64,000 bases of DNA from Candidatus Omnitrophota bacterium (lineage in GTDB: Bacteria; Omnitrophota; Gorgyraeia; Gygaellales; Profunditerraquicolaceae). Below are positions 38,801 through 55,198 of the stretch, one piece after another; within the stretch, counting starts at the first letter, position 1, and each line of letters begins with the position of its first letter. A program made the position numbers and the translations under genes. The DNA lies in NCBI GenBank assembly GCA_043812955.1, contig JBDRLN010000076.1, positions 4,864 to 68,863 of the forward strand, given 5' to 3'. The notes below the pieces were generated by a model. That model saw nothing but the letters and a program-made list of their open reading frames with translations. It ran no database searches and was not told the DNA's origin.

Positions 38801-38815
38801 TAGTAAACAAAAGAT

Positions 38816-40267
38816 TTATCGCGGCTGCCACCTCAGGTCCAGATCCCGGATTGCCTTAGTTTCATCCAGCCTTAAAACCGGGGTATTTTGGGGAGCGTCT
38901 TTAAGCCTTTGGGGATTGCTGATCGCTAAGCGGGAAGCTTCTTTCATTATTGCAATAAAATTATCCAGGGTTTCTTTGGATTCAGTCTCTGTCGGTTCAA
39001 TCATTATTGCTTCCGCAACGATCAACGGAAAATAAATGGTCGGAGGATGGATTTTTTTCTCGATCAAATACTTAGCAATATCCAAAGCGCTGACATCATT
39101 CTGCTTCTGTTTAGAGGCTGAAAAAACGCATTCATGCATACAGACCCGATCGTAAGGCAAGTCAAAATATTCCTTTAATTTTACCCGGCAGTAATTGGCA
39201 TTTAAGACCGCAGCCTCGGCAACTTCAATCAAGCCACTCTTGCCCAGAAATAAAATATAAGCATAGGCCTTAAGCATTACCCCAAAATTACCGTAGAAAG
39301 GAGCGATCCTGCCGATAGACTTAGGTTTATTAAATTCCGGCTTTATAGTTCCCTCGGCATCCTTAACTAACCTGGGCACCGGAAGAAATTCAACTAATTT
39401 TTTACTTACCCCCACCGGACCGGATCCCGGGCCCCCTCCTCCGTGAGGAGCGCCAAAACTCTTATGCAGGTTTAAATGGACTACATCAAAACCAAAATCT
39501 CCCGGCCGGGCCTTACCTAAAATAGGATTAAGATTAGCCCCGTCATAATAAACTAAGGCATCCACCTTATGCGCTGCGTCGCAAATCTGCTTGATCTGGG
39601 ATTCAAAAATCCCTAAAGTATTCGGGCAGGTCAGCATTACCGCAGCCACATCCGGATTTAACTTGGACTTAAAAATCTCCAGATCCATAAACCCATTCTT
39701 ATCCGAGGGAATAACTATTACTTCATAACCGGCAATAGCTGCGCTGGCCGGATTAGTCCCATGCGAAGAATCCGGGACAATTACGTATTTTCTCCTGTTG
39801 CCTTTAGCTTTATGATAAGCAGCGATCAACATAACTCCGGTCAGCTCTCCGTGGGCTCCGGCTAAAGGCTGGGTAGTAAAAGCATTCATCCCGGTTATCT
39901 CTGATAATAACCCTTCTAATTGATAGACAACTTCCAGCGCTCCTTGAGCAAATTTTTCTCCTGCCTCAAGCTGACAGATTAAGGGATGGATATCAGCAAA
40001 ACCTTCCATCCTGGCTATCTTCTCGGTAAATTTAGGATTATATTTCATAGTGCAGGAACCTAACGGATAGAAATTAGTATCTACGGAAAAATTCATCCGG
40101 GAGAGATTGGTAAAATGCCGGACTACGTCCAACTCCGAGGCCTGCGGTAAATTAGCTTTTTTGTTGCGTAGATATTTGGGGGCTAACCCGGGCTTTAGCG
40201 AAACATCCAGATTAGGCAACTTGACTGCCCTGCGCCCATCTTTACTCTTTTCGAATATCAATTGCAT
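38816..40267 (-). CDS. gcvPB: Glycine dehydrogenase (decarboxylating) subunit 2
   Basis: PLP-lysine region 'HLNLHKSF' in the context of a gcvT-H-PA-PB operon. Confidence 0.9.
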   Translation of the reverse strand: MQLIFEKSKDGRRAVKLPNLDVSLKPGLAPKYLRNKKANLPQASELDVVRHFTNLSRMNFSVDTNFYPLGSCTMKYNPKFTEKIARMEGFADIHPLICQLEAGEKFAQGALEVVYQLEGLLSEITGMNAFTTQPLAGAHGELTGVMLIAAYHKAKGNRRKYVIVPDSSHGTNPASAAIAGYEVIVIPSDKNGFMDLEIFKSKLNPDVAAVMLTCPNTLGIFESQIKQICDAAHKVDALVYYDGANLNPILGKARPGDFGFDVVHLNLHKSFGAPHGGGGPGSGPVGVSKKLVEFLPVPRLVKDAEGTIKPEFNKPKSIGRIAPFYGNFGVMLKAYAYILFLGKSGLIEVAEAAVLNANYCRVKLKEYFDLPYDRVCMHECVFSASKQKQNDVSALDIAKYLIEKKIHPPTIYFPLIVAEAIMIEPTETESKETLDNFIAIMKEASRLAISNPQRLKDAPQNTPVLRLDETKAIRDLDLRWQPR

Positions 40268-40280
40268 TGAGCACCTCTAT

Positions 40281-41618
40281 TTAAGCGGATAAAACTTCCT
40301 CCAGGGCCGAGGCATACTGAACAATATCATCCTTCGATTTAATCTCAGTAACCGTAACCAAAAGATAATTATCCATGCCTTTATAATATCTACCTAAAGG
40401 AAATCCGGCAATAAAACCTTTTGCAACCATCTCCTTAATCACCTGGTCCACTCTTTTAGGCAAGACTACCGTAAATTCATTAAAAGTAGGAGAGCTTCTT
40501 TTAACCTCGACTTTAGGTATTTTAGCTAAAAGTTCTTTAGCGAATTCACTCTTCTGATAATTTAGCTCGGCCAGCTCTTTTAAGCCTTCTTTGCCGATCA
40601 AAGAAAGATATATCAGGGCCCGGAGCGCGCACAAAGCCTGGTTAGAGCAGATATTGGAAGTAGCTTTTTCCCTACGGATATGCTGCTCCCTGGCTTGCAG
40701 GGTTAAAACAAAACCTCTTTTACCTTTCTTATCCACAGTCGCGCCCACGATCCTACCGGGCATCTTACGCACAAAATCTTTTTTCGCGCTCATAAAACCC
40801 AGATAAGGCCCGCCGAATGAAAGCGGCAACCCCAGGCTCTGACCTTCGCCAACAGCAATATCCACGCCCATCTCTGCCGGAGACTTCAGCATCCCCAAAG
40901 ATATAGGATAAACCGATTCAATAACCAGGCTTCCGTATGAATGGGCCTTTTCAACAATATCCGTATGATCATCAACCGCTCCGAAGAAATTCGGGTTCTG
41001 AAGTATTACTGCCGCGGTTTTATCATCTAAATGTTTATAGATCTCCTCCCGACAGCTCTGGCCGTGGACTACCTGGGTCTCTACGAATTCAATATTTAAA
41101 TTTGCGGTATAGCTATAAAGCATACTGCGGTAAATAAAATTTACCCCGCTATCCAGAACAATCTTATTCCTACCGCTAATCCTTAAAGCCATCATAGCCG
41201 CTTCAAAAATAGCTGTGCCGCCGTCATATAATGAGGCATTGGCTACATCCAAACCAGTTAGCTCACAGATCGCGGTCTGGTATTCGTAAATTGACTGCAG
41301 CCACCCTTGGGATGACTCCGGTTGATAGGGAGTATAGGCGGTATAAAATTCCGAACGACTGGCTAATTCATCTACTGCCGCCGGAATAAAATGCTGATAA
41401 AACCCTGCTCCCAGGAAATTCTTTAGGCCGGATACATTTAATGAAGCGAGCCTACGGCAATATTCAACTACCTCTAATTCAGATATACCCTCTGGTAGCT
41501 TTAAAGATTTAACCCTTAATTCCGGCGGAATATCCTTAAACAGGTCTTCGATCGAAGATACACCAATGGCCTTAAGCATCTCCTGAACATCAGCCTGAGT
41601 ATGTGGGACAAAATTCAT
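40281..41618 (-). CDS. gcvPA: Glycine dehydrogenase (decarboxylating) subunit 1
   Basis: 445-aa GcvP N-terminal-type protein adjacent to gcvPB and gcvH. Confidence 0.9.
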   Translation of the reverse strand: MNFVPHTQADVQEMLKAIGVSSIEDLFKDIPPELRVKSLKLPEGISELEVVEYCRRLASLNVSGLKNFLGAGFYQHFIPAAVDELASRSEFYTAYTPYQPESSQGWLQSIYEYQTAICELTGLDVANASLYDGGTAIFEAAMMALRISGRNKIVLDSGVNFIYRSMLYSYTANLNIEFVETQVVHGQSCREEIYKHLDDKTAAVILQNPNFFGAVDDHTDIVEKAHSYGSLVIESVYPISLGMLKSPAEMGVDIAVGEGQSLGLPLSFGGPYLGFMSAKKDFVRKMPGRIVGATVDKKGKRGFVLTLQAREQHIRREKATSNICSNQALCALRALIYLSLIGKEGLKELAELNYQKSEFAKELLAKIPKVEVKRSSPTFNEFTVVLPKRVDQVIKEMVAKGFIAGFPLGRYYKGMDNYLLVTVTEIKSKDDIVQYASALEEVLSA

Positions 41619-42008
41619 TTATTTCAACCCCTTTAAATAATCCTTATAAGCGCTTGAGTCCATTAAATTTTTCTTCTCAGCCTCATTCTTAATCTCAACT
41701 TGCACAAACCAGGCCTCGCCATAAGGAGCTTTATTAATCAACTCCGGTTTATTAACCAGGTCAGAATTTACCTTTACCACTTTACCGGATAAAGGCGCGA
41801 ATACATCCGAAGCCGCTTTTACTGATTCCACAGTAGCAAACATTTTGCCTTGGGATAATTCAGCGCCTAGCTTAGGTAATTCCACAAAAGTAACATCGCC
41901 TAAGGCATGCTGGGCATGATCAGAAATGCCAAAGGTAGCCAGATTACCTTCGATCTTAACCCATTCATGTTCCTTAGTATAAAATAATCCTTCGCATACC
42001 TCTTCCAT
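41619..42008 (-). CDS. gcvH: Glycine cleavage system H protein
   Basis: Lipoyl-lysine motif 'ESVKAASD'. Confidence 0.9.
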   Translation of the reverse strand: MEEVCEGLFYTKEHEWVKIEGNLATFGISDHAQHALGDVTFVELPKLGAELSQGKMFATVESVKAASDVFAPLSGKVVKVNSDLVNKPELINKAPYGEAWFVQVEIKNEAEKKNLMDSSAYKDYLKGLK

Positions 42009-42034
42009 TATCTTCCTCCTTATTATACCATTAT

Positions 42035-42069
42035 TCCACCCCGTAGGTGGGCTCCACCTACGGGGTGGA
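42035..42069. repeat. REP-like palindrome, copy 3
   Basis: CCACCCCGTAGGTGG-gctc-CACCTACGGGGTGG, 27 nt upstream of the gcvH ATG. Confidence 0.7.
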
Positions 42070-42077
42070 TACGGTTA

Positions 42078-43163
42078 TTATGACCTTAGGCTGCTGTTTT
42101 TATAAAATGGCTTATCGGTGATAGTCGCCTCAATCTCAACATTATTATCCTTAAGAATTATTTTATCTCCTTTTTTTACGCTATTTTTAACATAACCCAT
42201 CCCTATGCTAACCCCCAGGCTAGGAGCAAAAGATCCGCTGGTGACAAAACCTATTTCCCGGTCCTTAGCCCAAATCTTATAATTATGCCGGGCAGACCTA
42301 CGAGAAGCAGTAACAAATGAAACTAAATTTCTAGTTAGTCCTTTTTTTCTTTGTCCCAAAAGAGCATCTTTACCGATAAAATCTTTATTAAAATCTAAAT
42401 ATCTCTCCATACCAGCTTCTAGGGGAGTAATATCTTGGTCAATATCCTGTCCGTATAAGCTATACCCCATTTCCAGGCGCAGGGTATCTCTAGCTCCTAA
42501 ACCGGCAGGCTTAACTAATTTATTCTTTAATAACAACTCCCATAGTTCTTTTATTTTAGGATTAGATAGGTATATCTCATATCCTAATTCTCCGGTATAT
42601 CCGGTGCGACTAATGATATTTTTCTCCCCTAAAATATCAAAATAGTCAAAGGTATAATATTTTAGTTTATTTATCTGCGAACCTACGATACTATTCAGTA
42701 CTTCCCGGGAAAAAGGCCCCTGCAAATCTAGTTTTCCAATTTTAGAAGAAACATTTTTTAAGTCAACATCTTTAAAAAGATGTCCTCTTAGATTACCCTC
42801 ATCGGCGGCTGTGGTAGCGGCATTAACTACTAACATCCATTCATCCGGCTTAATCTGGTAAACAATCAGGTCATCGATTATGCCGCCCTTTTCATTAAGC
42901 ATTGAGGTGTAACGGCACTTTCCGCAGGGCATATCTTTTAAATTCACCGTTAAAATCCTGTCTAACCCGCTTTTAACCGGATCTGCCTTAAGCAAAAACT
43001 CTCCCATATGGCAGATATCAAACACGCTGGTCTTATTCCGAGTCCAGATATGCTCATTCAGGATACCGCTATATTGGATCGGCATCAACCAACCGCCAAA
43101 AGCAGCCATTTGGGCTCCCAACTTTTCATGTTCGAAAAAAAGAGGAGTCTTTTTTAGGTCCAT
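42078..43163 (-). CDS. gcvT: Aminomethyltransferase (glycine cleavage T protein)
   Basis: 361 aa with 'GYTGELGYEIY'. Confidence 0.9.
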   Translation of the reverse strand: MDLKKTPLFFEHEKLGAQMAAFGGWLMPIQYSGILNEHIWTRNKTSVFDICHMGEFLLKADPVKSGLDRILTVNLKDMPCGKCRYTSMLNEKGGIIDDLIVYQIKPDEWMLVVNAATTAADEGNLRGHLFKDVDLKNVSSKIGKLDLQGPFSREVLNSIVGSQINKLKYYTFDYFDILGEKNIISRTGYTGELGYEIYLSNPKIKELWELLLKNKLVKPAGLGARDTLRLEMGYSLYGQDIDQDITPLEAGMERYLDFNKDFIGKDALLGQRKKGLTRNLVSFVTASRRSARHNYKIWAKDREIGFVTSGSFAPSLGVSIGMGYVKNSVKKGDKIILKDNNVEIEATITDKPFYKNSSLRS

Positions 43164-43205: not shown

Positions 43206-43541
43206 TTACATACCGACCATAACAGGAACAGTGATATAAATATAACGTAACTTCTGATTGCGGCTATTTCTTATATCGTGGTTGGTTTCGGGAGGAATGT
43301 AAACCAGGCTTTCTTTGCCGGCGGTAAATACAAAGGCGCCTTCCACATAAACATCCGCTTCCCCTTCTAGGACAATAATCGCCTCTTCTTTACCTTGAGT
43401 TTTATGCTCTCCCACGGATTCGCCAGGTTTCAAAGTCACGCATCCAGATTTCATTCCGGCGGTAGAAGGCGCGCCATTAAGCAGGCGCTGATATTCATCG
43501 GTTTGGGTTAATTTTATAAGGACCGGTGACTTATCATTCAT
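43206..43541 (-). CDS. Cupin domain protein
   Basis: 111 aa with two-His cupin motifs ('GESVGEHKTQGKEEAIIVLEGE', 'PPETNHDIRN'). Confidence 0.5.
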   Translation of the reverse strand: MNDKSPVLIKLTQTDEYQRLLNGAPSTAGMKSGCVTLKPGESVGEHKTQGKEEAIIVLEGEADVYVEGAFVFTAGKESLVYIPPETNHDIRNSRNQKLRYIYITVPVMVGM

Positions 43542-44293
43542 TTGGAATTCTTATTTATCAGGGCAGCGATATATCCCGCGCCAAAACCGTTATTAATATT
43601 AACTACCGATACATTCGGGGCGCAGCTATTAAGCATAGTTAATAAAGGCGCGATACCCATAAAATTAGCCCCGTAACCGACTGATGTAGGCACGGCAATT
43701 ACCGGGCAAGCAGCCATCCCTCCGATAACCGAAGGTAAAACTCCGTCCATTCCAGCCAAAACTATGATGCAACGGCTCTTAGAGATCCGTTTAAAACAAT
43801 CCAAAATCCGGTGGATTCCGGCTACACCCACATCATAAACCCTTTCAACATGGCTGCCAAACACTTGAGCAGTTACTGCCGCTTCTTCAGCAGCCGGTAT
43901 ATCTGCTGTGCCTGCGCAAACCACCGAAACTAACCCCTTACGCGTGGTGAGTTTTCCTTCTAAATAAATAGCCCTGGCCAAAGAATTGTAGGTAACTTTG
44001 GGATTTATTTTCTTAATTTGAGTATAAATCTTTTCGTCCGCCCGGGTTAATAATACAAACTTATTTCTTTTAGCCAGCGACTTAAAGATAGCTTTAATCT
44101 GCTCCTGAGTCTTGCCCGGACAGAAAACAACTTCAGGAAATCCAACCCGCATCTGGCGATGGTGGTCAACCTTGGCAAATCCTAAGTCCTCATAAGGCAA
44201 ATGCCTTAATTCTTCAAAGGCGTCATTAATTGAGATACGCTTAGCCTTTACCCGGGAAAGCAGATTAATTATCTTTTTCTTTTCCATCCCCAA
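43538..44293 (-). CDS. larB: Nickel-pincer cofactor biosynthesis protein LarB-like (PurE-like pyridinium-3,5-biscarboxylic acid mononucleotide synthase)
   Basis: N-terminal 'AKVDHHRQMRVGFPEVVFCPGKT' region plus a PurE-like C-terminal half ('VVCAGTADIPAAEEA'). Adjacent to a LarE-like gene. Confidence 0.55.
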   Translation of the reverse strand: MGMEKKKIINLLSRVKAKRISINDAFEELRHLPYEDLGFAKVDHHRQMRVGFPEVVFCPGKTQEQIKAIFKSLAKRNKFVLLTRADEKIYTQIKKINPKVTYNSLARAIYLEGKLTTRKGLVSVVCAGTADIPAAEEAAVTAQVFGSHVERVYDVGVAGIHRILDCFKRISKSRCIIVLAGMDGVLPSVIGGMAACPVIAVPTSVGYGANFMGIAPLLTMLNSCAPNVSVVNINNGFGAGYIAALINKNSK

Positions 44294-45078
44294 ATCTCAT
44301 TCATTGAGCCTATCCGGTAACCTTCAAGGTCTATTGTAACATAAGTAAATCCCAAAGATTTCATTTTTTTTATAATCCGGATTCTATCTTTAAGGATAAT
44401 CGACACATCTTCATTCCCAGCCTCAATACGGCACAAATTTGAGTGATTACGCACTCTGAACTGCGTAATTCTTAGGGCGCGCAAGAATTCTTCCGCCTTC
44501 TCAACCATCAAAAGTTTCTTTCTAGTGATTCTCTCTCCATAAGCAAAGCGTGAGCCTAAACAAGCCATTGCCGGCTTATTCCAAGTATCTAAACCCATAT
44601 CTTTCGAAAGTAAGCGAATATCTTTCTTAGTCAACCCTACTTCCTGCAAAGGGCTCCTGATCCCCAGCTCCTTGAGCGCTTTTCTACCCGGACGATAATC
44701 CATTAGGTCATCGGCATTAGAGCCGTCTATAACCGCGGAAAACCCTTTACAACGGGCAATGCCGATAAGACCGGAAAAAACTTCCTTCTTACAATAATAA
44801 CAACGATCCTTAGGGTTATTCAGCAACTCCGGGACCAATCTCTGTTTAACAAATTGATGAGAAATCTTGATTTTCTTGGCCAGGCGCCGGGCTTCTTTCT
44901 TTTCAGACTCAGACAGGAACGCTGACACACAAGTCACTGCTAAAACTCTATTCTTTAATGTATCAACGGCTGTTTTGGCCAGAAAAGTGCTATCAACCCC
45001 TCCGGAAAACGCGATAACCGCTGAACCAATATCTTCAAGAATATATTGGAGTTTCTTTAATTTATTATTTATCTCCAT
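44269..45078 (-). CDS. larE: LarE-like PP-loop ATP pyrophosphatase (sacrificial sulfur transferase family)
   Basis: PP-loop 'AFSGGVDSTFLA', plus 'DRCYYCK' and a candidate sacrificial Cys in 'AMACLGSRF'. Confidence 0.55.
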   Translation of the reverse strand: MEINNKLKKLQYILEDIGSAVIAFSGGVDSTFLAKTAVDTLKNRVLAVTCVSAFLSESEKKEARRLAKKIKISHQFVKQRLVPELLNNPKDRCYYCKKEVFSGLIGIARCKGFSAVIDGSNADDLMDYRPGRKALKELGIRSPLQEVGLTKKDIRLLSKDMGLDTWNKPAMACLGSRFAYGERITRKKLLMVEKAEEFLRALRITQFRVRNHSNLCRIEAGNEDVSIILKDRIRIIKKMKSLGFTYVTIDLEGYRIGSMNEIWGWKRKR

Positions 45079-45099: not shown

Positions 45100-45211
45100 T
45101 TAGGGGACGTTTCTATTTAAAATTAGGGGACGTTTCTATTTTTCAATGTTTAGATAGACAGAAAAATAGAAACGTCCCCTAATTTGTCCCCTTATTTACG
45201 TCCCCTAAAAT
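45100..45211. promoter_or_regulatory. Array of five AGGGGACG(T) boxes (two direct, three inverted), including a 19-bp hairpin
   Basis: TTAGGGGACGTTTCTATTT at 45100-45118 and 45123-45141. Inverted copy AAATAGAAACGTCCCCTAA at 45164-45182. Further GTCCCCTTA and ACGTCCCCTAA units at 45185-45211. The array lies between the stop of the last hydrogenase-operon gene and the larE start. Confidence 0.5.
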
Positions 45212-45221
45212 ATCCGCTTTT

Positions 45222-45506
45222 TTACCTTAATTTTGCATATTCGGCTAAGGTTGAATTCTTCTTGCTGACAAAAACAACCATAACCCAACAGGCAAATATA
45301 GCAGCCGTAATCGTTATGCCTAACATCAAGTCGCCGATAATATTTTTTGAAATAAAGAATATCTCGCCATTCCATAAGTGGTCAATAAGTCCGAATAATG
45401 AACCACCCAAAAACATCAAGCTAAGCCACCCTATCTTGATGTTTTTTGTCTTATGCCAAACTGCAGATGTAATTATAGCGCTTGCGGTTGGAAAAATATA
45501 ACACAT
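45222..45506 (-). CDS. Hypothetical small membrane protein
   Basis: 94 aa with 2-3 TM helices. Preferred over the overlapping + strand ORF (45184-45501), whose sequence is low-complexity. Confidence 0.3.
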   Translation of the reverse strand: MCYIFPTASAIITSAVWHKTKNIKIGWLSLMFLGGSLFGLIDHLWNGEIFFISKNIIGDLMLGITITAAIFACWVMVVFVSKKNSTLAEYAKLR

Positions 45507-45579: not shown

Positions 45580-46761
45580 CTAAATTCCTAAATCTGTCGG
45601 CGCCCTGCCGATAGAACGCAGCAACTGAATAATTGTCTCGATTCTTTTCTCAACATCCTCTTTTACTCCCGCACGATCAGGGTAAATATCATAAAACTGC
45701 TGGTATTTCCTGGGCGTTACATTAATCATTAAGGAATTCGCTCCGGCCATCAGCCCTAACCTTAAAGCATTTACTCTATCTAAGGTCTCAAATGAAGTAT
45801 TTACTAAGATCTGGGCTTTAGGATTTAAAATTCTCGCATTAGCAATTGTATTTAAGACTGTCTCAGTTGAAACCGTGGGAGTATTTGCCATAGGCGTATC
45901 CGGATGGGATATAAAAGGACCGAAAGAGAACATATCAGCCCCAAGGGTATTAGTCAATTCAATATTCTTTTTTACATCCTCTTCTTTTTCGCTAGGTAAG
46001 CCAATAAGAAAACCAGTCATGACTAAATACCCTATATTATGAAGTCTCCTGATCAACTCCAGCCTATCTTTAAGATCCCGGCCTGGCCTTAACTTAGCGT
46101 AAAATTGCGGATTGGCAGTTTCGAAACGTAAGAGTACGCCCCTGGCCCCTTCTTTATACAACCTTTCATATAGGCTGAAGTCTCTTTCGCCTAAGCTTAA
46201 TATGATCAAAGAAGGTGAATCTTGCCGGATCTTCTTTATCAGATAAACTAATTTCTCCTGGTCATACCAGGGATCTTCTCCGGACTGCAATACTAGGGCC
46301 TTAAACCTTAATTTATGCACGGCAAGGCTAGCCGTCTCTAATATCTCATCTAAGCCCATCCTGTATCGGGTGAGTTTTGAATTGCTTTGCCGGATCCCGC
46401 AATAAAAACAATCCATTTGGCAATAATTTGAGAATTCAATAATAGCGTGGGTGCAACAGGAATTTCCATGGTATTTCTGGCGCAGGTTATTGGCCCTCTG
46501 ATAAAGGGTCTTGGGGTCTTTTTGGATTAGCTGGCTATCGATCTCCTGAAGCTTAAAAAATAATTCCTTCCAGCTTTCTAATGCCGGCAAGGCTTCTCTT
46601 TCGCTTACTTTTTGAATAATAAAACCACCCTGGGCATAGGCATAATCGCCTATTTTTAAATCAAAGAATTCATTCCTGGCTTTTTTCTGCTCGCCGAAAT
46701 ATTCGACGCTAACTATATTCTCTTTTATACCGGTGATCTTGCCGGGGATAGCGTAGCACAT
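45580..46761 (-). CDS. Radical SAM maturase HydE homologue with N-terminal HypC-like domain (fusion)
   Basis: Residues 1-60 'MCYAIPGKITGI...IGDYAYAQGGFIIQKVSEREA' match the HypC/HupF pattern (MC-x-[AG]-[IV]-P ... GD[YW]V..H.GFA...EA). The remainder matches HydE: 'CQMDCFYCGIRQSNSKLTRYRM', 'LQSGEDP', 'LLRFETANP', 'GPFISHPDTPMAN' and 'YPDR'. Confidence 0.65.
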   Translation of the reverse strand: MCYAIPGKITGIKENIVSVEYFGEQKKARNEFFDLKIGDYAYAQGGFIIQKVSEREALPALESWKELFFKLQEIDSQLIQKDPKTLYQRANNLRQKYHGNSCCTHAIIEFSNYCQMDCFYCGIRQSNSKLTRYRMGLDEILETASLAVHKLRFKALVLQSGEDPWYDQEKLVYLIKKIRQDSPSLIILSLGERDFSLYERLYKEGARGVLLRFETANPQFYAKLRPGRDLKDRLELIRRLHNIGYLVMTGFLIGLPSEKEEDVKKNIELTNTLGADMFSFGPFISHPDTPMANTPTVSTETVLNTIANARILNPKAQILVNTSFETLDRVNALRLGLMAGANSLMINVTPRKYQQFYDIYPDRAGVKEDVEKRIETIIQLLRSIGRAPTDLGI

Positions 46762-46762
46762 A

Positions 46763-48259
46763 CTAAAAATAAAGGTCTCTTTTGCCCTGTTTTATTTCGT
46801 CTAAATAGGCCCGGGTTTTCTGGCGCAAGGAACTATCTTCTATTTTATCCAGATACGTCCTGATTACCTGATAACCTTTTTCATAAATTCCATAGGCACT
46901 TTGACTCGCTTTCGCTCGCTCAGTGTCAATGGTAGACTCATTTGAAGCATTGAAAAAATCTTCCAAATATTCGGCAAAGGTCAAAATCCCGTTAGACCGG
47001 CAGAAATTATGGATCTCTCCGGGTTTGGAAATCTCCATAAATTCCTCACCAGTCCTGCCTAAGCGGTAACAAGCAGTGCAGAAACTGGGCAAAAATCTAT
47101 CCTTGATCGCGTCATTAACCACTTCCTCTAAGGCGCGCTCATCCTGAACCTTAAACTGAGACAGGCCGGACTCTTTACCATATCCGCCTACCGTGGTACA
47201 GGAACCGGCTGAGGCCTGGGAGATGCCGATTTTAAAAGCCTGAGAACGTATTTCCGGGCTCTCGCGGGTAGAGATAATCATACCGGTATAAGGGACTGCC
47301 AGCCTTAAAATAGCAATTAGTTTTAGAAAATCATTATCGCTGACTTTATAAGGGAATTTTAAATTTACTGTCGCGGCTTCTCTGATCCGGGGAACCGATA
47401 TGGTATGAGGACCGATTTTGTATTTCTGGTCTAAATACCAGGCATGGGTAATAAGGGCCAATACTTCAAAACGCCAATCATAAAGCCCGAAAAGAACACC
47501 TATTCCTAGATCATCGATACCGGCTTCAAAAGCCCTTCCATAGGCAGTGATTTGGCGCAAATAATCGGCCTTAGGCCCATGGTGGATCTTTTCATAAGTA
47601 TTCCGGTGATAGGTCTCCTGAAACAATTGATAAGTCCCAATCTTGGCTTTTTTTAATTTGCGGTAGTTTTCAACTGTAGTGGCTGCGATATTGACATTTA
47701 TCCTGCGGATACTTCCCTTATCAGTTTTCACACTATAAATCTTATCTATAATCTTGGTAACATAATCAATATTATTATTTAAGGGGTCTTCGCCAAACTC
47801 CACCAGAACCCTTTTATGTCCCATACTAATCAAAATTTTAGTTTGTTCCTCTACATCAGCCAAACTCAGACGTTTACGCTTAAAAGCCATATTCCGGCTA
47901 TGAAAATTACAATAATCGCAATCATTGATGCAGAAATCCGAAACATACAACGGGGCGAAAAATACCAACCTCTCTCCGTAAACCTCGTTCTTTACCCAGC
48001 CCGCGGTATCTAATAATTCCTGAATTAGTTTTAAATCAGATAGATTAACCAAAAAGCCAGCATCTTCAGGACTAAGCCCCTTCATCTTTCTGGCTTCTTG
48101 AAGAATAACCCGGACAGCCTCTTTAGAAGGAGTTTTAGTCTCTTCTAGTATTTTATTTATATTTTTTTCGTTGATAATATTCTCTACCATTTTATTTTTT
48201 TGATTACAAAGGATAGGCATTTTATCCGCGGAATCTGTTTTTAAAATCTGTGTAATCAT
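46763..48259 (-). CDS. Radical SAM tyrosine lyase HydG homologue
   Basis: Radical SAM motif 'CINDCDYCNF' (HydG/ThiH type) plus the HydG-specific C-terminal CX2CX22C motif ('CTACYRLGRTGEEFMEISKPGEIHNFC'). Confidence 0.7.
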   Translation of the reverse strand: MITQILKTDSADKMPILCNQKNKMVENIINEKNINKILEETKTPSKEAVRVILQEARKMKGLSPEDAGFLVNLSDLKLIQELLDTAGWVKNEVYGERLVFFAPLYVSDFCINDCDYCNFHSRNMAFKRKRLSLADVEEQTKILISMGHKRVLVEFGEDPLNNNIDYVTKIIDKIYSVKTDKGSIRRINVNIAATTVENYRKLKKAKIGTYQLFQETYHRNTYEKIHHGPKADYLRQITAYGRAFEAGIDDLGIGVLFGLYDWRFEVLALITHAWYLDQKYKIGPHTISVPRIREAATVNLKFPYKVSDNDFLKLIAILRLAVPYTGMIISTRESPEIRSQAFKIGISQASAGSCTTVGGYGKESGLSQFKVQDERALEEVVNDAIKDRFLPSFCTACYRLGRTGEEFMEISKPGEIHNFCRSNGILTFAEYLEDFFNASNESTIDTERAKASQSAYGIYEKGYQVIRTYLDKIEDSSLRQKTRAYLDEIKQGKRDLYF

Positions 48260-48266
48260 TATTTAA

Positions 48267-48866
48267 TTAGGATTTATATACTGCTTCCCGACGGCAGCGG
48301 GGGCAAAGGACTTTGAGGCGGTCGGAGCGCGTAAATTCCTGTTTTTCGTCAATAGCTATTTCTTCTTTGCTGGCGGGATTTAAATTCTGGAGGTAAAATA
48401 ACAAAAGCGAGGCATTGGAAAAGCAAAGCGGGCCTAAACGTTTAGCCACCCACAATATCTGATCATACGGCGCGATTATCTCTTTGCAGCAATCGCAGAC
48501 AACCAATTCCTTTTCTATCTCCTGTTTTAAATCCTGCCTTTTTTCAGTAGTAGCCAGATCAAATTCATTAGACAACATTATTCCTTTGCCGGTCAGGCAA
48601 TTTGCCTGGCACTGGCCGCAGAATATGCATAAATCCCAATGCACAGTAAGTTTCCTCTTGCTTTCTACATCTTGCATTTCAATAGCCTTGGCCGGGCAAA
48701 CCTCAAAACAGGCCCCACAACCAACACAATCATCCTTGTGGAATTCCGACCTGCCCCTAAACCTGGGATAAGGCGTATGCCTCTGATAAGGGAACCGGTT
48801 AGTGTAAGGCCCCTTAATGATGGCTTTAATCGCCTCTTTTAATTCTCTTAATTTCGGATAACGCAT
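48267..48866 (-). CDS. 2x[4Fe-4S] ferredoxin, NuoI/MbhN-like, with extra C-terminal Cys pairs
   Basis: 'CVGCGACFEVCP' and 'CIFCGQCQANC', with additional 'CDCC' and 'CPRC' motifs. Confidence 0.6.
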   Translation of the reverse strand: MRYPKLRELKEAIKAIIKGPYTNRFPYQRHTPYPRFRGRSEFHKDDCVGCGACFEVCPAKAIEMQDVESKRKLTVHWDLCIFCGQCQANCLTGKGIMLSNEFDLATTEKRQDLKQEIEKELVVCDCCKEIIAPYDQILWVAKRLGPLCFSNASLLLFYLQNLNPASKEEIAIDEKQEFTRSDRLKVLCPRCRREAVYKS

Positions 48867-48937: not shown

Positions 48938-49282
48938 CTACATACTATCTACTATTTTTTTATCTTCTTCGTACTTATCACAAACTGATTTTCCCCAGAG
49001 TTTTACTCCGGATTTATGGGCCGCCCGGGCTAAAACATGGGCAGAAACAGGGGCAGTCAATAATATAAATAAGATGCACAAAATTGCCTTTATGCCAGCG
49101 GCAGTAAATCCTTTAAATAGAAATAAACCAAATAATATCCCGCAGGTTCCCAGGGTAACGCTTTTTGTTGAAGCCTGCAGGCGATTATAAACATCCGGTA
49201 AACGGATTAGGCCCAGGCAGCCAAAAAAATCAAAGATAAGCCCGACAACTATAAAGAATATGCCGAATATCTCATTCATCAA
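48938..49282 (-). CDS. Mrp/Mnh antiporter subunit G-like
   Basis: 114 aa. Its N-terminus 'IFGIFFIVVGLIFDFFGCLGLIRLPDVYNRLQASTKSVTLG' matches the MnhG family. Confidence 0.6.
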   Translation of the reverse strand: MMNEIFGIFFIVVGLIFDFFGCLGLIRLPDVYNRLQASTKSVTLGTCGILFGLFLFKGFTAAGIKAILCILFILLTAPVSAHVLARAAHKSGVKLWGKSVCDKYEEDKKIVDSM

Positions 49283-49631
49283 AATTTCTCCCTTCCAGAT
49301 ACTTGGCTAAAGCCAAAGTAGAGATGAAACTTTGCAAGGCCCAGGCAATACCTATATCAATATACCAATCCCTGCCCGTGGAAATAGACAGTATCGCGCA
49401 AAAACCTAAAATTAATATCCCCAATATATCGACAGCCACGGCCCTGTCTGCCGAGGTCGGGCCTTTAATAATCCGCCAGAGGCAAAAAAATGAACAAAAG
49501 AAAAGCGTCATAAAACCATGCCTTAAAAAAGGAGATTGCCATTCCAGTAAAGAATAAAAGGGAATAAAAATAATCGCCCCGAGAATAATTATAATTGCTG
49601 TCAGGCCTAATAACCAACGTAACCTTTTCAT
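49272..49631 (-). CDS. Mrp/Mnh antiporter subunit F-like
   Basis: 119 aa with three TM helices and an 'SADRAVAVDILG' motif. Confidence 0.55.
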   Translation of the reverse strand: MKRLRWLLGLTAIIIILGAIIFIPFYSLLEWQSPFLRHGFMTLFFCSFFCLWRIIKGPTSADRAVAVDILGILILGFCAILSISTGRDWYIDIGIAWALQSFISTLALAKYLEGRNFDE

Positions 49632-50125
49632 TCAAAAATCCTTTTTAAGAGCCGCTCGAACCTGCGGACAATAATCTCTGCGGCTTTCTGGGTATCCTGA
49701 TCTTTAATATAAATCCAGTGGATATATAAAAACCCATTTTCTTGATCTATATCCACGCTCATAGTACCGGGGGTAAGGGTAATAGAGTTAGCCAAAAAAG
49801 TCAGGGCTGTATCTGACTTTAAAATAGTCTTAACCTTGATTATCCCTGGATTAATAAGTAAATCCGGGTGAGCGACCCGATAAGCCACATCAATATTCGC
49901 CTTAATACATTCCCAGATAAATAAGGGGATATAATAAAGAAACCAGAGATATCGGCTGATTTGTTTAAATTTGTGCGGCCTTCTTATAAACATATCGCCG
50001 GTTACAAAAGAAACCAGGGCGCAGACCAGAATCCCGACGATAAAATGCTGCAGGTCCACCGGCCAAGATAAAAAAGACCAGACTATAATCGCAATCATAA
50101 ATAAAATTATTTGGCTTTTTCTCAT
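49628..50125 (-). CDS. Mrp/Mnh antiporter subunit E-like
   Basis: 165 aa. Its position and two N-terminal TM helices are consistent with MnhE. Confidence 0.5.
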   Translation of the reverse strand: MRKSQIILFMIAIIVWSFLSWPVDLQHFIVGILVCALVSFVTGDMFIRRPHKFKQISRYLWFLYYIPLFIWECIKANIDVAYRVAHPDLLINPGIIKVKTILKSDTALTFLANSITLTPGTMSVDIDQENGFLYIHWIYIKDQDTQKAAEIIVRRFERLLKRIFE

Positions 50126-50136
50126 TGCAAATTAAC

Positions 50137-51624
50137 TTATCTTAAGGCGTTAAAAACAACGTCTTTATAACCATTGCCTAATAACAAAACGTCGGCCGCT
50201 GACTGCAAGAATGGTTTAAATAAAGGTATGATCAATAAACCGCCAACTAAGCAAATAATTGCTAAAGCTACCATAGATATTTGCATTGCCCAGGGCACCT
50301 CTTTTACACTAAGCCATTTTTCTTTTAACCTCCCTGAAAAAGCATATTTCTGCACCTTCATAAAAGAGGCTAAGGTAAGAATAGAGGCAGCTACCGCAAA
50401 TATGGCAAAAATAATTTTACCCGATTGGATACAGGCAAAAATTATCAAAAGCTTACTCCAAAAACCGTTAAAAGGCGGGATGCCGGCAATAGACATCGAG
50501 GCTACTAAATTTGTACTAGCAGTAACAGGCATCTTTTCTTTTAAACCGCCCATATCCTTCAGGTCTCTTGTGCCTAAGCTATAATCCAGCGCCCCCGAAT
50601 TTAAGAAAAGCAATGATTTAAATATAGAATGATTAAACAAATGGAATAACCCCGCCAGTATACCTAAGGGAGTACCTAAGCCAATACCTAAAATAACATA
50701 ACCGATCTGGCTTATGGAATGATACGCTAAAAGCCTTTTAAAATCCCATTGGACCAAGGCTAAGATTACTCCCATTAGCATTGAAATTATCCCTAAAAAC
50801 AACAGCACTGAAAGAATGCCGTTATTTATCCCGATAATATTAAAGAATATCCTTATTATGCAATAAACCCCCAGCACCTTTATCAATACCCCGGAAAGCA
50901 TTGCTGAAATAGATGCCGGCGCAGAAGGATGGGCATCCGGCAGCCAGGCGTGAAAAGGAACTAAAGCTGCCTTTAGGCCAAAGCCAGCTAAGAATAATAC
51001 CCCGACTAAACTAATCATTATACCTCCGGGCTTATTAGATAATACCAAAGCAATATCCGCCATATTTAAGGTAGAGGTATAACTATAAAGAAGGGCGATT
51101 CCTAATAACACAAAACTAGAGGCAACTGAGCCCATTATTGCGTATTTAAAAGAAGCCTCTAATTCCTCAGCCTCTGTGCCGAATGCCACTAAGGCATAGC
51201 TGGCGATAGAGGCAATTTCTAAAAAAACAAACAAATTAAATAAATCTCCGGTAATAATTATACCGTTCATCCCAGCCAGCATCAGCATAAATAAGGTATA
51301 AAACCGGTATTTATCCGTATATCTTTCCATATAATTAATGGAATAAATAGCCACCAGAAAACTAACTAAATTAACCGTAACTAACATAAAAGAGGCCAGG
51401 CCATCGAGGACCATGCTAATTCCTACGGGCGGCATCCAGCCTCCTATTTTATAGATAATAACCTTATGGGCCAGGACTTCTGAAATAGAATATACCGATA
51501 GGGCCAATAAACTAAATGTGCCTAAACTAGATAAGGAATCCCCAAGGCCTTTTATCCTCTTACCCAGGAGAGCGATAAGGAATGCTGCCAGCAAAGGAAT
51601 AACCGTAAAGAAAGGTAATATCAT
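50137..51624 (-). CDS. Antiporter-like subunit (MrpD/NuoN/MbhH family)
   Basis: 495-aa proton-pumping-subunit fold with about 14 TM helices and conserved 'FHLFNHSIFKSLLFL'. Confidence 0.75.
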   Translation of the reverse strand: MILPFFTVIPLLAAFLIALLGKRIKGLGDSLSSLGTFSLLALSVYSISEVLAHKVIIYKIGGWMPPVGISMVLDGLASFMLVTVNLVSFLVAIYSINYMERYTDKYRFYTLFMLMLAGMNGIIITGDLFNLFVFLEIASIASYALVAFGTEAEELEASFKYAIMGSVASSFVLLGIALLYSYTSTLNMADIALVLSNKPGGIMISLVGVLFLAGFGLKAALVPFHAWLPDAHPSAPASISAMLSGVLIKVLGVYCIIRIFFNIIGINNGILSVLLFLGIISMLMGVILALVQWDFKRLLAYHSISQIGYVILGIGLGTPLGILAGLFHLFNHSIFKSLLFLNSGALDYSLGTRDLKDMGGLKEKMPVTASTNLVASMSIAGIPPFNGFWSKLLIIFACIQSGKIIFAIFAVAASILTLASFMKVQKYAFSGRLKEKWLSVKEVPWAMQISMVALAIICLVGGLLIIPLFKPFLQSAADVLLLGNGYKDVVFNALR

Positions 51625-51959
51625 CCTTTTAATCTCCGGATTTTGGTAATATCAAAAGTGCCATACTTCTCATAAATTCTTATAGCAATAGCCACAATCA
51701 AGGCAGTAACCGCTAGGCCAATAACGATAGAGGTTAAAACTAAAGCCTGGGGCAAAGGATCAACCATATTTAAAATTATCTGATTCTTGGCTAATATGGG
51801 CGAGCGGCCATGCCAACGGTAGCCGATTAAGATTAAGAACAGGTTAACCGCGTATTCAATTATGCCTAAACCGATAACAATCTTAATAATATTCCTTTTT
51901 CTTAAAACACAGTAAAGCCCAATGGAAAATAAAATAAAACACAAGAAATATTCAATCAT
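51621..51959 (-). CDS. MrpC/NuoK-like subunit
   Basis: 112 aa with three TM helices. Confidence 0.55.
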   Translation of the reverse strand: MIEYFLCFILFSIGLYCVLRKRNIIKIVIGLGIIEYAVNLFLILIGYRWHGRSPILAKNQIILNMVDPLPQALVLTSIVIGLAVTALIVAIAIRIYEKYGTFDITKIRRLKG

Positions 51960-52408
51960 TACTTATCTCCCCGGCCTTTAAATAAAATCAAGGCCGCAAA
52001 TATGGCAAATAATCCTGCGCCTACCTTAAGGGATATAGCGATATTGCACAAAGGTATAATCCCGGCTGAGAATAAAGCAAAAGGACTCCCTTTATGCAAG
52101 AAAAAATTAAAAAATAAATATCCCCCTGAAAAACCAATCAAGGCAATAGCTAAAAACATTAAAGCGCCGATATTCTCTAAAACCGAAGCCCGGCCCTGGG
52201 ATAATTTTTTTAAAACCGCTTCCCGGCCAAAAGCAAGCATAAGGTGGATAAAAGAAAGGGCAATGATTACTCCGCCGGCAAATCCTCCGCCAGGGCTTAA
52301 GTGGCCATGCAGAACAATATAAATCCCGTAGAGCAGGATAAGCCCTACGGTAAGCCGGGTAACTGTCTTAACAATCACAGTCATTCCTGTTTCTTTTTTA
52401 TTTTTCAT
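51959..52408 (-). CDS. MrpB/MnhB-like subunit
   Basis: 'HGHLSPGGGFAGG' MnhB motif. Confidence 0.65.
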   Translation of the reverse strand: MKNKKETGMTVIVKTVTRLTVGLILLYGIYIVLHGHLSPGGGFAGGVIIALSFIHLMLAFGREAVLKKLSQGRASVLENIGALMFLAIALIGFSGGYLFFNFFLHKGSPFALFSAGIIPLCNIAISLKVGAGLFAIFAALILFKGRGDK

Positions 52409-52919
52409 TTATCCTGCCCACTCTCCTTATAACCGCTAATACCCCGATCACTGCGGCAAAAAGGACAGTGACCTCTCCTAAAGTATCATAACCTCTATAA
52501 TCTAAAATTATAGCTGAAACGATATTAGCTGCCCCGGTTTTTTCTAATCCATTATTAATATACCCTTGGGCTACGCGCATAATCGGCTGGCCAAAAACCG
52601 GCAATTCCTTTAAACCAAAGTAGACCAGCATCAAAAAAACAACAATAAATAATAATGTAGAGCTGGTGTTAAAAAACCACCGGCCATCCCGAATCACCGG
52701 TAGGTCTTTATTTATAGTTGCCCGAATAAGGATAATAAGGCAGAGGATTTCTACCACCAGCTGAGTAATGGCTAAATCCGGGGCCTTTAAAATCAAAAAG
52801 GCCATAGATAAACCTAAGCCCACTGCCCCTACAGCAATGACGCTGGAAAGCAAATCTTCTACTTGAACAGCTACAATTGCCGCGCCGATCATGAATAATA
52901 AAAGTAATTGCAGTTCCAT
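52398..52919 (-). CDS. MnhB-domain subunit (MrpA C-terminal-like, MbhD/E-type)
   Basis: 'GAANIVSAIILDYRGYDTLGE' motif. Confidence 0.6.
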   Translation of the reverse strand: MELQLLLLFMIGAAIVAVQVEDLLSSVIAVGAVGLGLSMAFLILKAPDLAITQLVVEILCLIILIRATINKDLPVIRDGRWFFNTSSTLLFIVVFLMLVYFGLKELPVFGQPIMRVAQGYINNGLEKTGAANIVSAIILDYRGYDTLGEVTVLFAAVIGVLAVIRRVGRINEK

Positions 52920-52928
52920 ATAATAATC

Positions 52929-54584
52929 CTATCTTAATAAAACCCAGAACAATCCCACCATGCCTAATAAACACCAAACTAAATATGTAGGCAATATCCC
53001 GTTATGTAGATACTGGAATGCACTACCAATAGAAAACACTAAATTCTTTCCTTGCTCGTAGATATCAAATAGCCCGGCCTGGGCCTTTTTGTAAATTAAA
53101 GCCAATACCGGCAGCTCTTTGATGGTGTTATAAAAATCAGTCCCGCTAATTTTATTCTCCTGGATATCCCTGGTTTCGCTTCCGGTAAAAGAACTATCCT
53201 GACGCACAACAAACTTTAGGCCTTTTAATTTAAATATTAAAAACCCTAAAACTAAACTAATGATGATAAGCCAGGTAGATAACAAAGCAGACCAGGTTCC
53301 GATAAAAGAAACTCCCTTTATAGCCGGAAATATAAAGTATTTAAGCGGAATTTGATAAGCTAATACGCCGAATACCACACAGGTAATTGCCAGTATTAAA
53401 CAGGGCAGCCACATCTGCCAGGAAACCTCTTTTACTTGCCTGTTTGTTTTCCGGCCTAAAAAAACCGCATGAATTAGTTTCATAAAACTGGCTAAGGTCA
53501 AACCCGAACCAAACATTGCCGCGGCCAGGCTGAAGATTGCTATAATCCGTAAAGTCTGATTCCCGGCTCCTAATAGGCTGACCAAGCCCTGATAGATCAT
53601 CCACTTAGAGACAAACCCGTTAAAAGGCGGAACGCCGGATATAGAAAGGCTGGCGACCAAAGAAGAAATAAAGGTAATAGGCATGGATTTACTTAAACCG
53701 CCTAATTCATCAAGTTCAGAGGTTTTGGTCCGATATTCTACGTTTCCGGCAGTCAAAAATAAACAAGATTTATACACGGCATGATTAAGCATGTGGAATA
53801 TTCCACCAGCAATACCAATAGGATTACCGGTGCCTATACCTAAAACCATATATCCTACCTGCGAAACCGCATGATAACCCAGAAGCCTCTTCATATTATG
53901 CTGGACTAAAGCCATCATTACTGCGGCAATAATAGTAAAGGCCCCGGTAATCATAAGAAATATATTCAGGGCCTGATTCATCGTAAATAGATTCAAAGAA
54001 ATCCGGGTTAATAAATAAATCCCCAGTAACTTATCTAAGGAAGCGGGTAAAAATGCCACAACCGGAATAGGTGCGGATTTAGCACAATCAGGAATCCAGG
54101 AGTGAAAAGGCATTGCTCCGGCCTTGGCAAAACAGGCAATGGCTAAGCATAAGTACGCCAAAGTAGGTAGTAAGTAGTAATTAGTAGATAGGGCGATTTT
54201 TATTTTGTCTATTTGAAAAGTACCGGTTAAATAATAGATTATGCCTATGCCAAACAACATCAGGGCATCCGTCCCTCCCACGATTATAAAAGTCTTTTTT
54301 GCCGCTAAACTTGACTCATCATTACCCATAGCGATAAGAAGATATAAGGTCAAGCCTAAAAAACCCCAACAGATTAAAAGCAGAATAAGATTGTTGGCCA
54401 GCACGGTTCCTATTGCTACCAAGGCAGTCAAGACTACATATACATAATACTGGGCTGCCTGGGGTTTGCCTTTTCTAAACTTAAATGAATAAACTAATAT
54501 TAAAACCGAAAAGGCAGCTATAGCCAAAGCAACAAAACCGCTTAGCGCGTCTAATTTAAACCAGGGATAGAAAATATTAGTCAT
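52929..54584 (-). CDS. Antiporter-like subunit (MrpA/NuoL family)
   Basis: 551 aa with 'HMLNHAVYKSCLFLTAG', the conserved NuoL/MrpA helix. Confidence 0.75.
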   Translation of the reverse strand: MTNIFYPWFKLDALSGFVALAIAAFSVLILVYSFKFRKGKPQAAQYYVYVVLTALVAIGTVLANNLILLLICWGFLGLTLYLLIAMGNDESSLAAKKTFIIVGGTDALMLFGIGIIYYLTGTFQIDKIKIALSTNYYLLPTLAYLCLAIACFAKAGAMPFHSWIPDCAKSAPIPVVAFLPASLDKLLGIYLLTRISLNLFTMNQALNIFLMITGAFTIIAAVMMALVQHNMKRLLGYHAVSQVGYMVLGIGTGNPIGIAGGIFHMLNHAVYKSCLFLTAGNVEYRTKTSELDELGGLSKSMPITFISSLVASLSISGVPPFNGFVSKWMIYQGLVSLLGAGNQTLRIIAIFSLAAAMFGSGLTLASFMKLIHAVFLGRKTNRQVKEVSWQMWLPCLILAITCVVFGVLAYQIPLKYFIFPAIKGVSFIGTWSALLSTWLIIISLVLGFLIFKLKGLKFVVRQDSSFTGSETRDIQENKISGTDFYNTIKELPVLALIYKKAQAGLFDIYEQGKNLVFSIGSAFQYLHNGILPTYLVWCLLGMVGLFWVLLR

Positions 54585-55198
54585 GATTTTATTTTGGCTA
54601 AATTCCTAGCGATATTTTTAGTATGATGATAAACCTCAGCCGTAAAATCCAGCATATTTATATACATATTGCAGGACATCGGGCTGCAGACTCCTTCGAT
54701 CACCCTCTCGGTATGCCTCCTACGATAATCATCAACTAAGTTATTCACACCCTTATGCCCCTGAGAAAGCTCTTTTAATACACCAACCTCATCTTTAGAA
54801 AAGGCATCGACTAATTTCTTTAATTCATTTTCGACTATATTATACAAAGCAATATATTCCTTTACTGCCTCATCGCTAAAAAGCAGCCTCTCTTCAATCT
54901 TAATCTGGACCCTCTCCAATATATCTTTGCAATAATCTCCGATAAGCTCTAGGTCTCCCGTCACGTCGGCATAGATAACAGCGCTTTGTTTAGTCTGGCC
55001 ATTCGTGGCCTTGACTAAATTAATCAACCCTGTATTAATCTCTTTTTCATAGTTATTTAGCCTGTCTTCATCTTTTAAAACCTCTGCCAGCAAATCCAGG
55101 TCATGCTCCATAAAAGTTTTAAAAGTTGTCTGCCACATCTTTAAAGTTAAAAAAGCCATTTTCACAACTTCACCTTTGATAGTCTCTAGGTCAGCCAT
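54581..55198 (-). CDS. PhoU-like domain protein inside the hydrogenase operon
   Basis: 'DVTGDLELIGDYCKDILERV' resembles the PhoU 'DxxxERIGD' repeat. 205 aa, no TM helix. Confidence 0.4.
   Translation of the reverse strand: MADLETIKGEVVKMAFLTLKMWQTTFKTFMEHDLDLLAEVLKDEDRLNNYEKEINTGLINLVKATNGQTKQSAVIYADVTGDLELIGDYCKDILERVQIKIEERLLFSDEAVKEYIALYNIVENELKKLVDAFSKDEVGVLKELSQGHKGVNNLVDDYRRRHTERVIEGVCSPMSCNMYINMLDFTAEVYHHTKNIARNLAKIKS

Follow-up and report, generated by a model that had tools for sequence, protein, structure and literature searches.

The 64,000-nucleotide stretch of Candidatus Omnitrophota bacterium DNA considered here (the window), part of a 106.7-kb contig of a metagenome-assembled genome, carries on its minus strand a [NiFe] hydrogenase operon whose two closing genes encode HydG and a fusion protein, in which a HypC-like domain is joined to a HydE-like radical S-adenosylmethionine (SAM) enzyme. 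[NiFe] and [FeFe] hydrogenases are a textbook case of convergent evolution, with separate maturation machineries. HydE and HydG are known only as maturases of [FeFe] hydrogenases, and HypC is the iron carrier of [NiFe] maturation. The parts of the two closing genes belong to known families; the combination of HypC-HydE with HydG is in neither of the described pathways. In the direction of transcription, the operon runs from AsrA-like, AsrB-like and 4Fe-4S proteins through NuoH-, NuoB- and NuoC-like subunits, the large subunit, a PhoU-domain protein, a complete Mrp-like module and a NuoI-like subunit to HydG and, at the end, the fusion. Its features are as follows.

58438-60809, minus strand: first genes of the operon, for a 4Fe-4S protein, an AsrB/ShyC-like subunit (FAD/NAD) and an AsrA/ShyB-like subunit
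56493-58474, minus strand: NuoC-like subunit, NuoB-like small subunit and NuoH-like membrane subunit
55191-56381, minus strand: [NiFe] large subunit, group 4 (PF00346, PF00374; motifs RICGICSNSH and DPCYCCTER)
54581-55198, minus strand: PhoU-domain protein within the operon (PF01895, 65 bits)
48938-54584, minus strand: Mrp antiporter-like membrane module (MnhG, MrpF, MnhE, MrpD, MnhC, MnhB, MbhD/E, MrpA-like)
48267-48866, minus strand: NuoI/HycF-like 2x[4Fe-4S] subunit, the final structural hydrogenase gene (NF009053, 91 bits; Fer4 families)
46763-48259, minus strand: HydG tyrosine lyase (TIGR03955), with a probable start at Met24 (48190)
46528-46761, minus strand: HypC-like domain, fusion residues 1-78 (PF01455; PDB HypC 2z1c; AlphaFold (AF2) model and Foldseek)
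45580-46515, minus strand: HydE radical-SAM domain, fusion residues 83-393 (TIGR03956; match to T. maritima HydE, hereafter TmHydE; Foldseek)

The hydrogenase is of the group-4 Mrp-Mbh type by its L1 and L2 cysteine motifs, its NuoB/C/D/H/I-like subunits and its Mrp module, and the Mrp-linked [NiFe] enzymes of Omnitrophota are assigned to 4g in the literature (PMC8542988, PMC10066038). The large subunit has all four cysteine ligands and a C-terminal extension of 36 amino acids (aa). Seven bases separate the NuoI-like gene from HydG and a single base separates HydG from the fusion, gaps so short that both genes belong to the hydrogenase operon. The original prediction, made from the letters of the window, had placed HydE and HydG in one operon with a group-4 [NiFe] hydrogenase and had seen no hydA, hydF or hypCDEF in the 64 kb, and on both counts it was right. 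Searches with tblastn gave no match in the window for HypA, HypB, HypD, HypE, HypF and HycI (E. coli queries) or for HydF and HydA (Omnitrophota queries), and Pfam scans of 40 further open reading frames (ORFs) of the window concur, with no hyp, hydA or hydF genes among them. The large subunit has its tail, but genes for a HycI-type protease, HypA and HypB, which many relatives place beside the fusion, are absent from the 64 kb.

The HypC-HydE fusion and its HydG partner

The fusion is encoded by an ORF of 393 aa (45580-46761, minus strand) with the N-terminus MCYAIPGK. HypC-family proteins carry Fe(CN)2CO via their N-terminal cysteine and dock onto the large-subunit precursor (PMC8692609). 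The first ~60 residues had been read as HypC/HupF, and the Pfam profile and the structure comparison bear this out. PF01455 (HupF_HypC) matches residues 1-63 over positions 1-64 of its 65 with 46.3 bits (E 4.8e-12), well over the cut-off of 28.5; TIGR00074 gives 41.4, under its cut-off of 48; and HypC of T. kodakarensis (PDB 2z1c) matches this part by sequence with E 3e-8. The AlphaFold model of residues 1-82, with a predicted local distance difference test (pLDDT) score of 93.3, folds as a five-strand oligonucleotide/oligosaccharide-binding (OB) barrel with a long helix that continues into HydE. When this model was compared with the PDB using Foldseek, the ten top matches were all HypC, the best being 2z1c_B with template modelling (TM) scores of 0.75/0.83 and a root-mean-square deviation of 2.0 Å.

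The cysteine directly after the initiator methionine, Cys2, had been judged to sit in the HypC position and is invariant in an alignment of fusions (29 of 29), together with M1, Y3, I5, P6, G7, Y21, F22, N30, Y40, Y42, Q44, G46 and W64. Across the same alignment, the HypC part is conserved no less than the enzyme part. The domain shares with HypC, HybG and HupF its fold, its length and the Met-Cys-x-x-x-Pro-Gly start, as well as the genomic company of hydrogenase structural genes, HycI and HypA. However, those are free proteins of 75-110 aa, whereas here the domain is covalently joined to a radical-SAM enzyme, stays below the TIGR00074 cut-off and never lies beside hypD in the 82 loci described below. 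It also differs at the position of His51 of E. coli HypC, which in an alignment made by eye is the invariant Gln44 in Y-type fusions and Thr in a second, L-type group; the histidine is not kept. Classical HypC reportedly uses His51 with HypD (Soboh et al. 2013), and the residue is linked to iron binding on the HypCD scaffold.

The remainder of the protein is HydE, as had been proposed, and the HydE motifs quoted for it are all found. Its closest solved relative is TmHydE (210 bits over residues 83-388). The HydE model TIGR03956 covers residues 73-385 with 240.8 bits, a near miss just below the equivalog cut-off of 254.6, and the PylB and BioB models fall far behind, with 131 and 93. In the full-length model (pLDDT 91.1, predicted TM score 0.90) this part is a HydE-type full triosephosphate isomerase (TIM) barrel, with the radical-SAM CX3CX2C motif at C114/C118/C121, and the model matches TmHydE at E ~1e-31 with target TM scores (TMt) of 0.83-0.87, including the synthon (complex-B)-bound structures 7o1o and 8qmk. 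Residues M224 and M291 of TmHydE hold Fe(I) intermediates (PMC11826987), and their counterparts in the fusion, Met277 and Met345, are kept in 100% of the fused clade and in 93% of canonical HydEs.

Other positions are peculiar to the fused clade. Cys103 and His105 are invariant there, where canonical HydE has H/Y/F and Arg (92%; R54 in TmHydE), and Cys102 is likewise invariant, giving a clade-specific C102-C103-x-H105. In barrel strand beta1 the fused clade accordingly reads NSCCxHGIIEFSN and the canonical enzymes GDxVHLRGIIEFSN; K309 is replaced by Arg in the Omnitrophota forms. The original prediction had held out phylogenetic placement of both radical-SAM proteins as a check. In a neighbour-joining tree of 143 HydE domains, without support values, all HypC-fused forms, of both N-terminal types, fall in one clade, which also takes in a few fragments and three unfused sisters and lies apart from the 117 canonical representatives. 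Compared with HydE of the HydEFG system (T. maritima, PDB 3CIW/7O1O), the fused form keeps the match of ~210 bits, the CX3CX2C motif, the equivalents of Met224 and Met291 and the HydG partner. It differs in its separate clade, in Cys-Cys-x-His for Val-His-x-Arg in beta1, in its score under the TIGR03956 cut-off, in the attached HypC and in its setting, usually without HydF or HydA and within [NiFe] operons.

The adjacent ORF of 498 aa (46763-48259, minus strand) is HydG, again in agreement with the original prediction. It matches TIGR03955 over its full length with 509 bits against an equivalog cut-off of 312, and has both cluster motifs, CX3CX2C (CINDCDYC) and CX2CX22C (CTAC-X22-C). With homologues of 454-461 aa, Met24 is its likely start. 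The HydGs that adjoin fusions in Omnitrophota are 58-83% identical to it. From other HydG tyrosine lyases it differs only in genomic context, namely a [NiFe] operon and, sometimes, fusion to HypC-HydE. The product of HydG is an Fe(CO)2(CN)(Cys) synthon, which is bound by HydE (PMC11826987; PDB 7o1o, 8qmk).

Family size and gene neighbourhoods

The original prediction knew of no description of such a fusion. It is not confined to the window but belongs to a large family that is found in several phyla. Among 2,206 relatives from a word-indexed search, the best 120 are all ~392 aa long, carry PF01455 and PF04055 and are 57-100% identical; at least 521 relatives come from Joint Genome Institute (JGI) metagenomes, and an exhaustive search of representatives gave 407 clusters at E <= 1e-30. 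The databases name these proteins 'radical SAM protein', 'HydE', 'HypC/HybG/HupF chaperone' or 'biotin synthase', and NCBIfam release 20 has no model for the fusion. The hosts, with phylum names as labelled in the databases, are Omnitrophota, Elusimicrobiota and Margulisiibacteriota, with one Elusimicrobia and one Margulisiibacteriota metagenome-assembled genome among the species-representative genomes. A second N-terminal type (L-type), MCLTIPGK...GDW..., is more HypC-like, and one example of it is labelled Pseudomonadota.

Further fusions occur in the family. HypC, HydE and HydG form a single chain in P0123 (906 aa) and P0136 (881 aa), whereas P0143 joins HydE to HydG and lacks HypC. In two sets of proteins (P0145, P0159 and P0254; P0181, P0228 and P0240) HydE has unrelated N-terminal extensions of ~110-165 aa, of at least two kinds, and HydE seems prone to gaining carrier-like domains at its N-terminus. 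Chlamydomonas has a HydEF fusion, which together with P0143 sets a precedent for fusing maturases that act in sequence. However, those fusions remain within the [FeFe] system, whereas HypC-HydE joins parts of two systems. No report of a HypC-HydE fusion, or of HydG or HydE in [NiFe] maturation, was found in openly searchable full text; the nearest published theme is a 2024 paper on archaea with hybrid hydrogenases and with maturases missing (PMC11216029).

Gene neighbourhoods were compared at 82 non-redundant loci, the number left after merging near-identical ones; those from metagenomes, many of them short, are the 80 with the greatest similarity to the window protein. ORFs were simple longest-ORF calls and took their labels from the best blastp match in three reference sets, namely the window proteins, E. 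coli HypA-F with HycI, and HydF, HydA, HycI, HypA and 3b subunits from annotated loci. The counts below give the loci in which a gene occurs and, after the semicolon, those in which it lies within three ORFs of the fusion.

HydG: 49 of 82; 46
Any [NiFe]-linked gene (group-4 or 3b subunits, HycI, HypA, HypB): 43 of 82; 40
Group-4 Mrp-Mbh genes: 18 of 82; 15
Group-3b-like subunits: 18 of 82; 11
HycI: 24 of 82; 21
HypA: 17 of 82; 15
HypB: 2 of 82; 2
HydF: 2 of 82; 0
[FeFe]-type HydA: 3 of 82; 0
HypD, HypE or HypF: 0 of 82; 0

Where at least four ORFs are available on each side (28 loci), HydG is present in 23, [NiFe] genes in 17 and HydF in 2. The E. coli set found HypA, HypB and HycI at 26-40% identity, so the more conserved HypD, HypE and HypF would not have been missed. 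A lone 'HypF' match (L069) was set aside as spurious, since it covers 37 residues in an ORF of 124 aa.

Typical gene strings are '...MnhG NuoI HycI HypA HydG FUS' and 'beta gamma small large HycI HypA FUS HydG', with FUS for the fusion, and a NuoI-like gene precedes HydG or the fusion in many loci. In Margulisiibacteriota (L006) a 3b operon is followed by HycI, the fusion and HydG, and in Elusimicrobia (L005) the order is HypA, HydG, fusion; both were confirmed with Pfam. The triple fusions lie in 3b-type gene clusters. At L094, the 906-aa HypC-HydE-HydG protein follows beta, gamma, small and large subunits, HycI and a cyclic nucleotide monophosphate (cNMP)-binding protein, and at L097 the 881-aa protein has the diaphorase genes on one side and the small and large subunits on the other, and HypA is close by. 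An unfused HydE of the sister group, at L099, comes with HydG directly after a [NiFe] large-subunit gene, which ends ...DPCMSCAAHFLKVRWNEA. All large subunits beside the fusion (28 of 28) keep both [NiFe] cysteine motifs and a cleavable tail of 7-41 aa. Clustering of the unlabelled neighbours brought out no recurrent unknown partner family; Pfam gave MoaA, MOSC, ThiF, Rrf2, hemerythrin and kinase matches.

A candidate maturation module for [NiFe] hydrogenases

The sequences directly show what the domains are, how tightly their genes are linked in the operon, that the arrangement recurs across phyla, that triple fusions exist and that the HydE clade is distinct. On the simplest reading, HydG and HypC-HydE are a single functional unit that would usually serve a [NiFe] hydrogenase; that the two act together follows from their adjacency and from the existence of the triple fusions. 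At the window, the fusion and HydG would be a dedicated maturation module for the [NiFe] hydrogenase of the same operon, a reading to which we give a probability of roughly 60%.

In such a module, HydG, which has the full set of HydG motifs, would cleave tyrosine and assemble an Fe-CO/CN synthon on its C-terminal cluster. The HydE domain would then bind and process the synthon, as its similarity to TmHydE and the kept Fe(I)-holding methionines suggest, and this processing in the barrel may take place at the Cys-Cys-x-His site. The tethered HypC-like domain would take the Fe-carbonyl/cyanide unit on Cys2 and, in the manner of HypC and HybG, pass it on to the large subunit in its apo form. Nickel insertion by HypA/HypB and C-terminal cleavage by HycI would proceed as usual, and many relatives have the genes for these steps next to the fusion. 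Fe(CN)2CO would then be made wholly or partly by the module instead of by HypD/HypE/HypF. The more far-reaching version, for which we see somewhat less than an even chance, is a [NiFe] site made independently of HypD/HypE/HypF: HydG would make both CO and CN from tyrosine, the specialised HydE would process the iron synthon and the fused HypC would insert it into the large subunit, and the same proteins may serve [NiFe] or [FeFe] enzymes depending on the genome. Service to either class is conceivable because Omnitrophota genera carry 3b/4g [NiFe] or A3 [FeFe] hydrogenases. The module would resemble HypX as an add-on that supplies diatomic ligands to HypC-bound iron. It differs in that the proteins are unrelated and in its chemistry, radical-SAM tyrosine cleavage here and formyl-tetrahydrofolate plus coenzyme A in HypX.

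The hand-over of the HydG synthon to a HypC-type carrier for a [NiFe] site was the central proposal of the original prediction, and it has come through in part. Recurrence at the ends of group-4 and 3b operons, with HycI and HypA, in at least three phyla speaks for it, as do the triple fusions within [NiFe] operons and the lack of HypD, HypE and HypF in all 82 loci. The ligand count and the context of two loci, L008 and L015, speak against the hybrid route. HydG makes an Fe(CO)2(CN) synthon, and the [NiFe] site needs Fe(CN)2(CO). Further, the known work of HydE is C-S cleavage and formation of an Fe(I) dimer (PMC11826987), chemistry that has no obvious place in [NiFe] assembly although the Fe(I)-holding methionines are kept.

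Several other points weigh on the same side. The module reading is built on homology and on gene neighbourhoods; the 80 loci from metagenomes were picked by similarity to the window protein and so are not an unbiased sample; and the absence of HypD/E/F is that from the neighbourhoods at the 82 loci. HydG is not adjacent to the fusion in L010, L011 and several other loci. At L001, L002 and L033, the HydG-fusion pair follows a molybdopterin oxidoreductase cluster; upstream of HydG these loci carry the molybdopterin oxidoreductase, NrfD, a 4Fe-4S protein and a conserved protein of ~483 aa without a Pfam match. A complete hypCDEF set and an [FeFe] hydrogenase with hydF elsewhere had been named as grounds for regarding the adjacency as incidental. 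The 64 kb of the window hold neither hydF nor an [FeFe] hydrogenase, but some relatives hold both: at L008 and L015 hydF is 4 kb away from the HydG-fusion pair and an A3-type [FeFe] hydrogenase 10 kb away, in the order NfnB/GltD-like gene, HydG, fusion, two genes, Rex, HydF, NuoF-like gene, [FeFe] HydA. The available part of the KEGG Orthology (KO) tables of Seymour et al. 2023 has one Omnitrophota genome with hypACDEF and Mrp and, in that part, no HydG- or HydE-like KO, and another with an [FeFe] KO and HydG- and HydE-like KOs and, again in that part, no hyp genes. These two informative genomes suggest alternative routes, and are too thin to weigh.

The loci L078 and L083 bear on the same question. 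In one stretch of 21 kb, a 3b operon, HycI and the fusion are followed by Rex, an A3-type [FeFe] hydrogenase, HydG and a canonical, unfused HydE. This HydE is 35% identical to the enzyme part of the fusion, and the HydG there is 40-42% identical to that of the window. Since the fusion coexists here with a canonical HydE beside [FeFe] HydA, it is a paralogue able to coexist with an [FeFe] set. Such a stretch lends itself to telling the two maturation sets apart.

Could the chain instead hold two independent functions? The HypC part would then work in the HypCDEF pathway and the HydE part with HydG and HydF on an [FeFe] enzyme, with the partners encoded elsewhere, and the position in the operon would reflect co-regulation of hydrogen metabolism. 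Some Omnitrophota species do own both 4g [NiFe] and A3 [FeFe] enzymes (PMC10066038). The HydG-fusion pair near HydF and the A3-type hydrogenase in L008/L015 fits such a division of labour, as do the canonical catalytic features retained by the HydE domain, and HypDEF might sit outside every examined locus. However, hypC usually adjoins hypD, and HypD is found in none of the 82 loci, HydF in two and neither hydA nor hydF in the window. The idea also sits poorly with HydG-containing triple fusions inside [NiFe] operons, with the canonical HydE that stands beside the [FeFe] genes in L078/L083 and with clade-specific changes in both domains (His51 to Gln or Thr; Arg to His plus Cys-Cys). We consider it unlikely. 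A module confined to [FeFe] enzymes appears more doubtful still. In that case the HypC-like domain would be a protein-bound cysteine carrier that moves the HydG synthon into HydE for the H-cluster, and the [NiFe] neighbours would not be the client. An N-terminal cysteine can chelate iron via S and N, much like the free cysteine in the HydG synthon; the features of HydE and HydG are canonical, and the L008/L015 context would fit. Against this, [NiFe] genes are present in 43 of the 82 loci and [FeFe]-type HydA in three, the commonest immediate neighbours, HycI and HypA, are both [NiFe]-specific, and the surveyed Omnitrophota genera have 3b or 4g [NiFe] or A3 [FeFe] enzymes, not necessarily both (PMC8542988).

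A partial hybrid, in which HydG and HydE-HypC give only the CO ligand and cyanide comes from HypE/HypF on the HypD scaffold, would make the problem of ligand stoichiometry disappear. It would also address the anoxic origin of CO, an acknowledged gap; HypX accounts for aerobic conditions only (PMC6802093). Yet HypD, HypE and HypF appear in none of the 82 neighbourhoods, and the HypC domain of the fusion is without the His51 that classical HypC uses with HypD; we give this possibility a small chance, like that of the [FeFe]-confined module.

If the route independent of HypD/HypE/HypF is real, it would link the [NiFe] and [FeFe] maturation systems and provide a defined anaerobic source of the [NiFe] carbonyl. 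The module predicts tyrosine-derived CO and CN in a [NiFe] site made without HypDEF. A compact object for such a test is a 3b hydrogenase of four genes that comes with HycI and one maturase of 906 aa. The inference of hydrogenase capacity from metagenomes would change as well, as these genes are now read as [FeFe] maturation or 'biotin synthase', and heterologous production of [NiFe] hydrogenases may become simpler.

Other genes in and beside the operon

The PhoU gene stands between the large subunit and the MrpA-like gene, a position kept in at least three Omnitrophota loci (the window, L010 at 785-1414, and L043); PhoU is not known to have a role in hydrogenase complexes. The AsrA/ShyB- and AsrB/ShyC-like genes and the 4Fe-4S protein with which the operon opens suggest that this membrane-bound, ion-translocating hydrogenase of group 4 has an NAD(P)H-linked input module.

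On its 3' side the fusion is separated from LarE, LarB and a cupin by a promoter-like site, a membrane ORF of 94 aa and a strong hairpin, and because of these three the hydrogenase operon most likely ends at the fusion. The 94-aa ORF (45222-45506, minus strand) encodes a predicted membrane protein that has no family match and, like the fusion, starts with MCY; it has a good ribosome-binding site and the promoter-like site upstream. Between it and LarE, at 45100-45215, repeats of AGGGGACG(T)TTCTATTT, direct and inverted, form a long hairpin that could be a terminator or a regulatory element. LarE (316 bits), LarB (284 bits) and the cupin lie at 43206-45078 (minus strand), probably as a separate transcription unit; neither LarA nor LarC turned up in the window ORFs that were compared with family libraries. 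In L016 (5072-6163), too, the fusion is followed by LarE. A functional link of LarE/LarB to the fusion was considered and set aside, since LarE follows the fusion in two of the 82 loci and the promoter-like site, ORF and hairpin intervene. Further along the same strand, at 37153-43163, the glycine cleavage genes are complete (gcvT, H, PA, PB) and are accompanied by genes for a lipoate-protein ligase and a radical-SAM protein.

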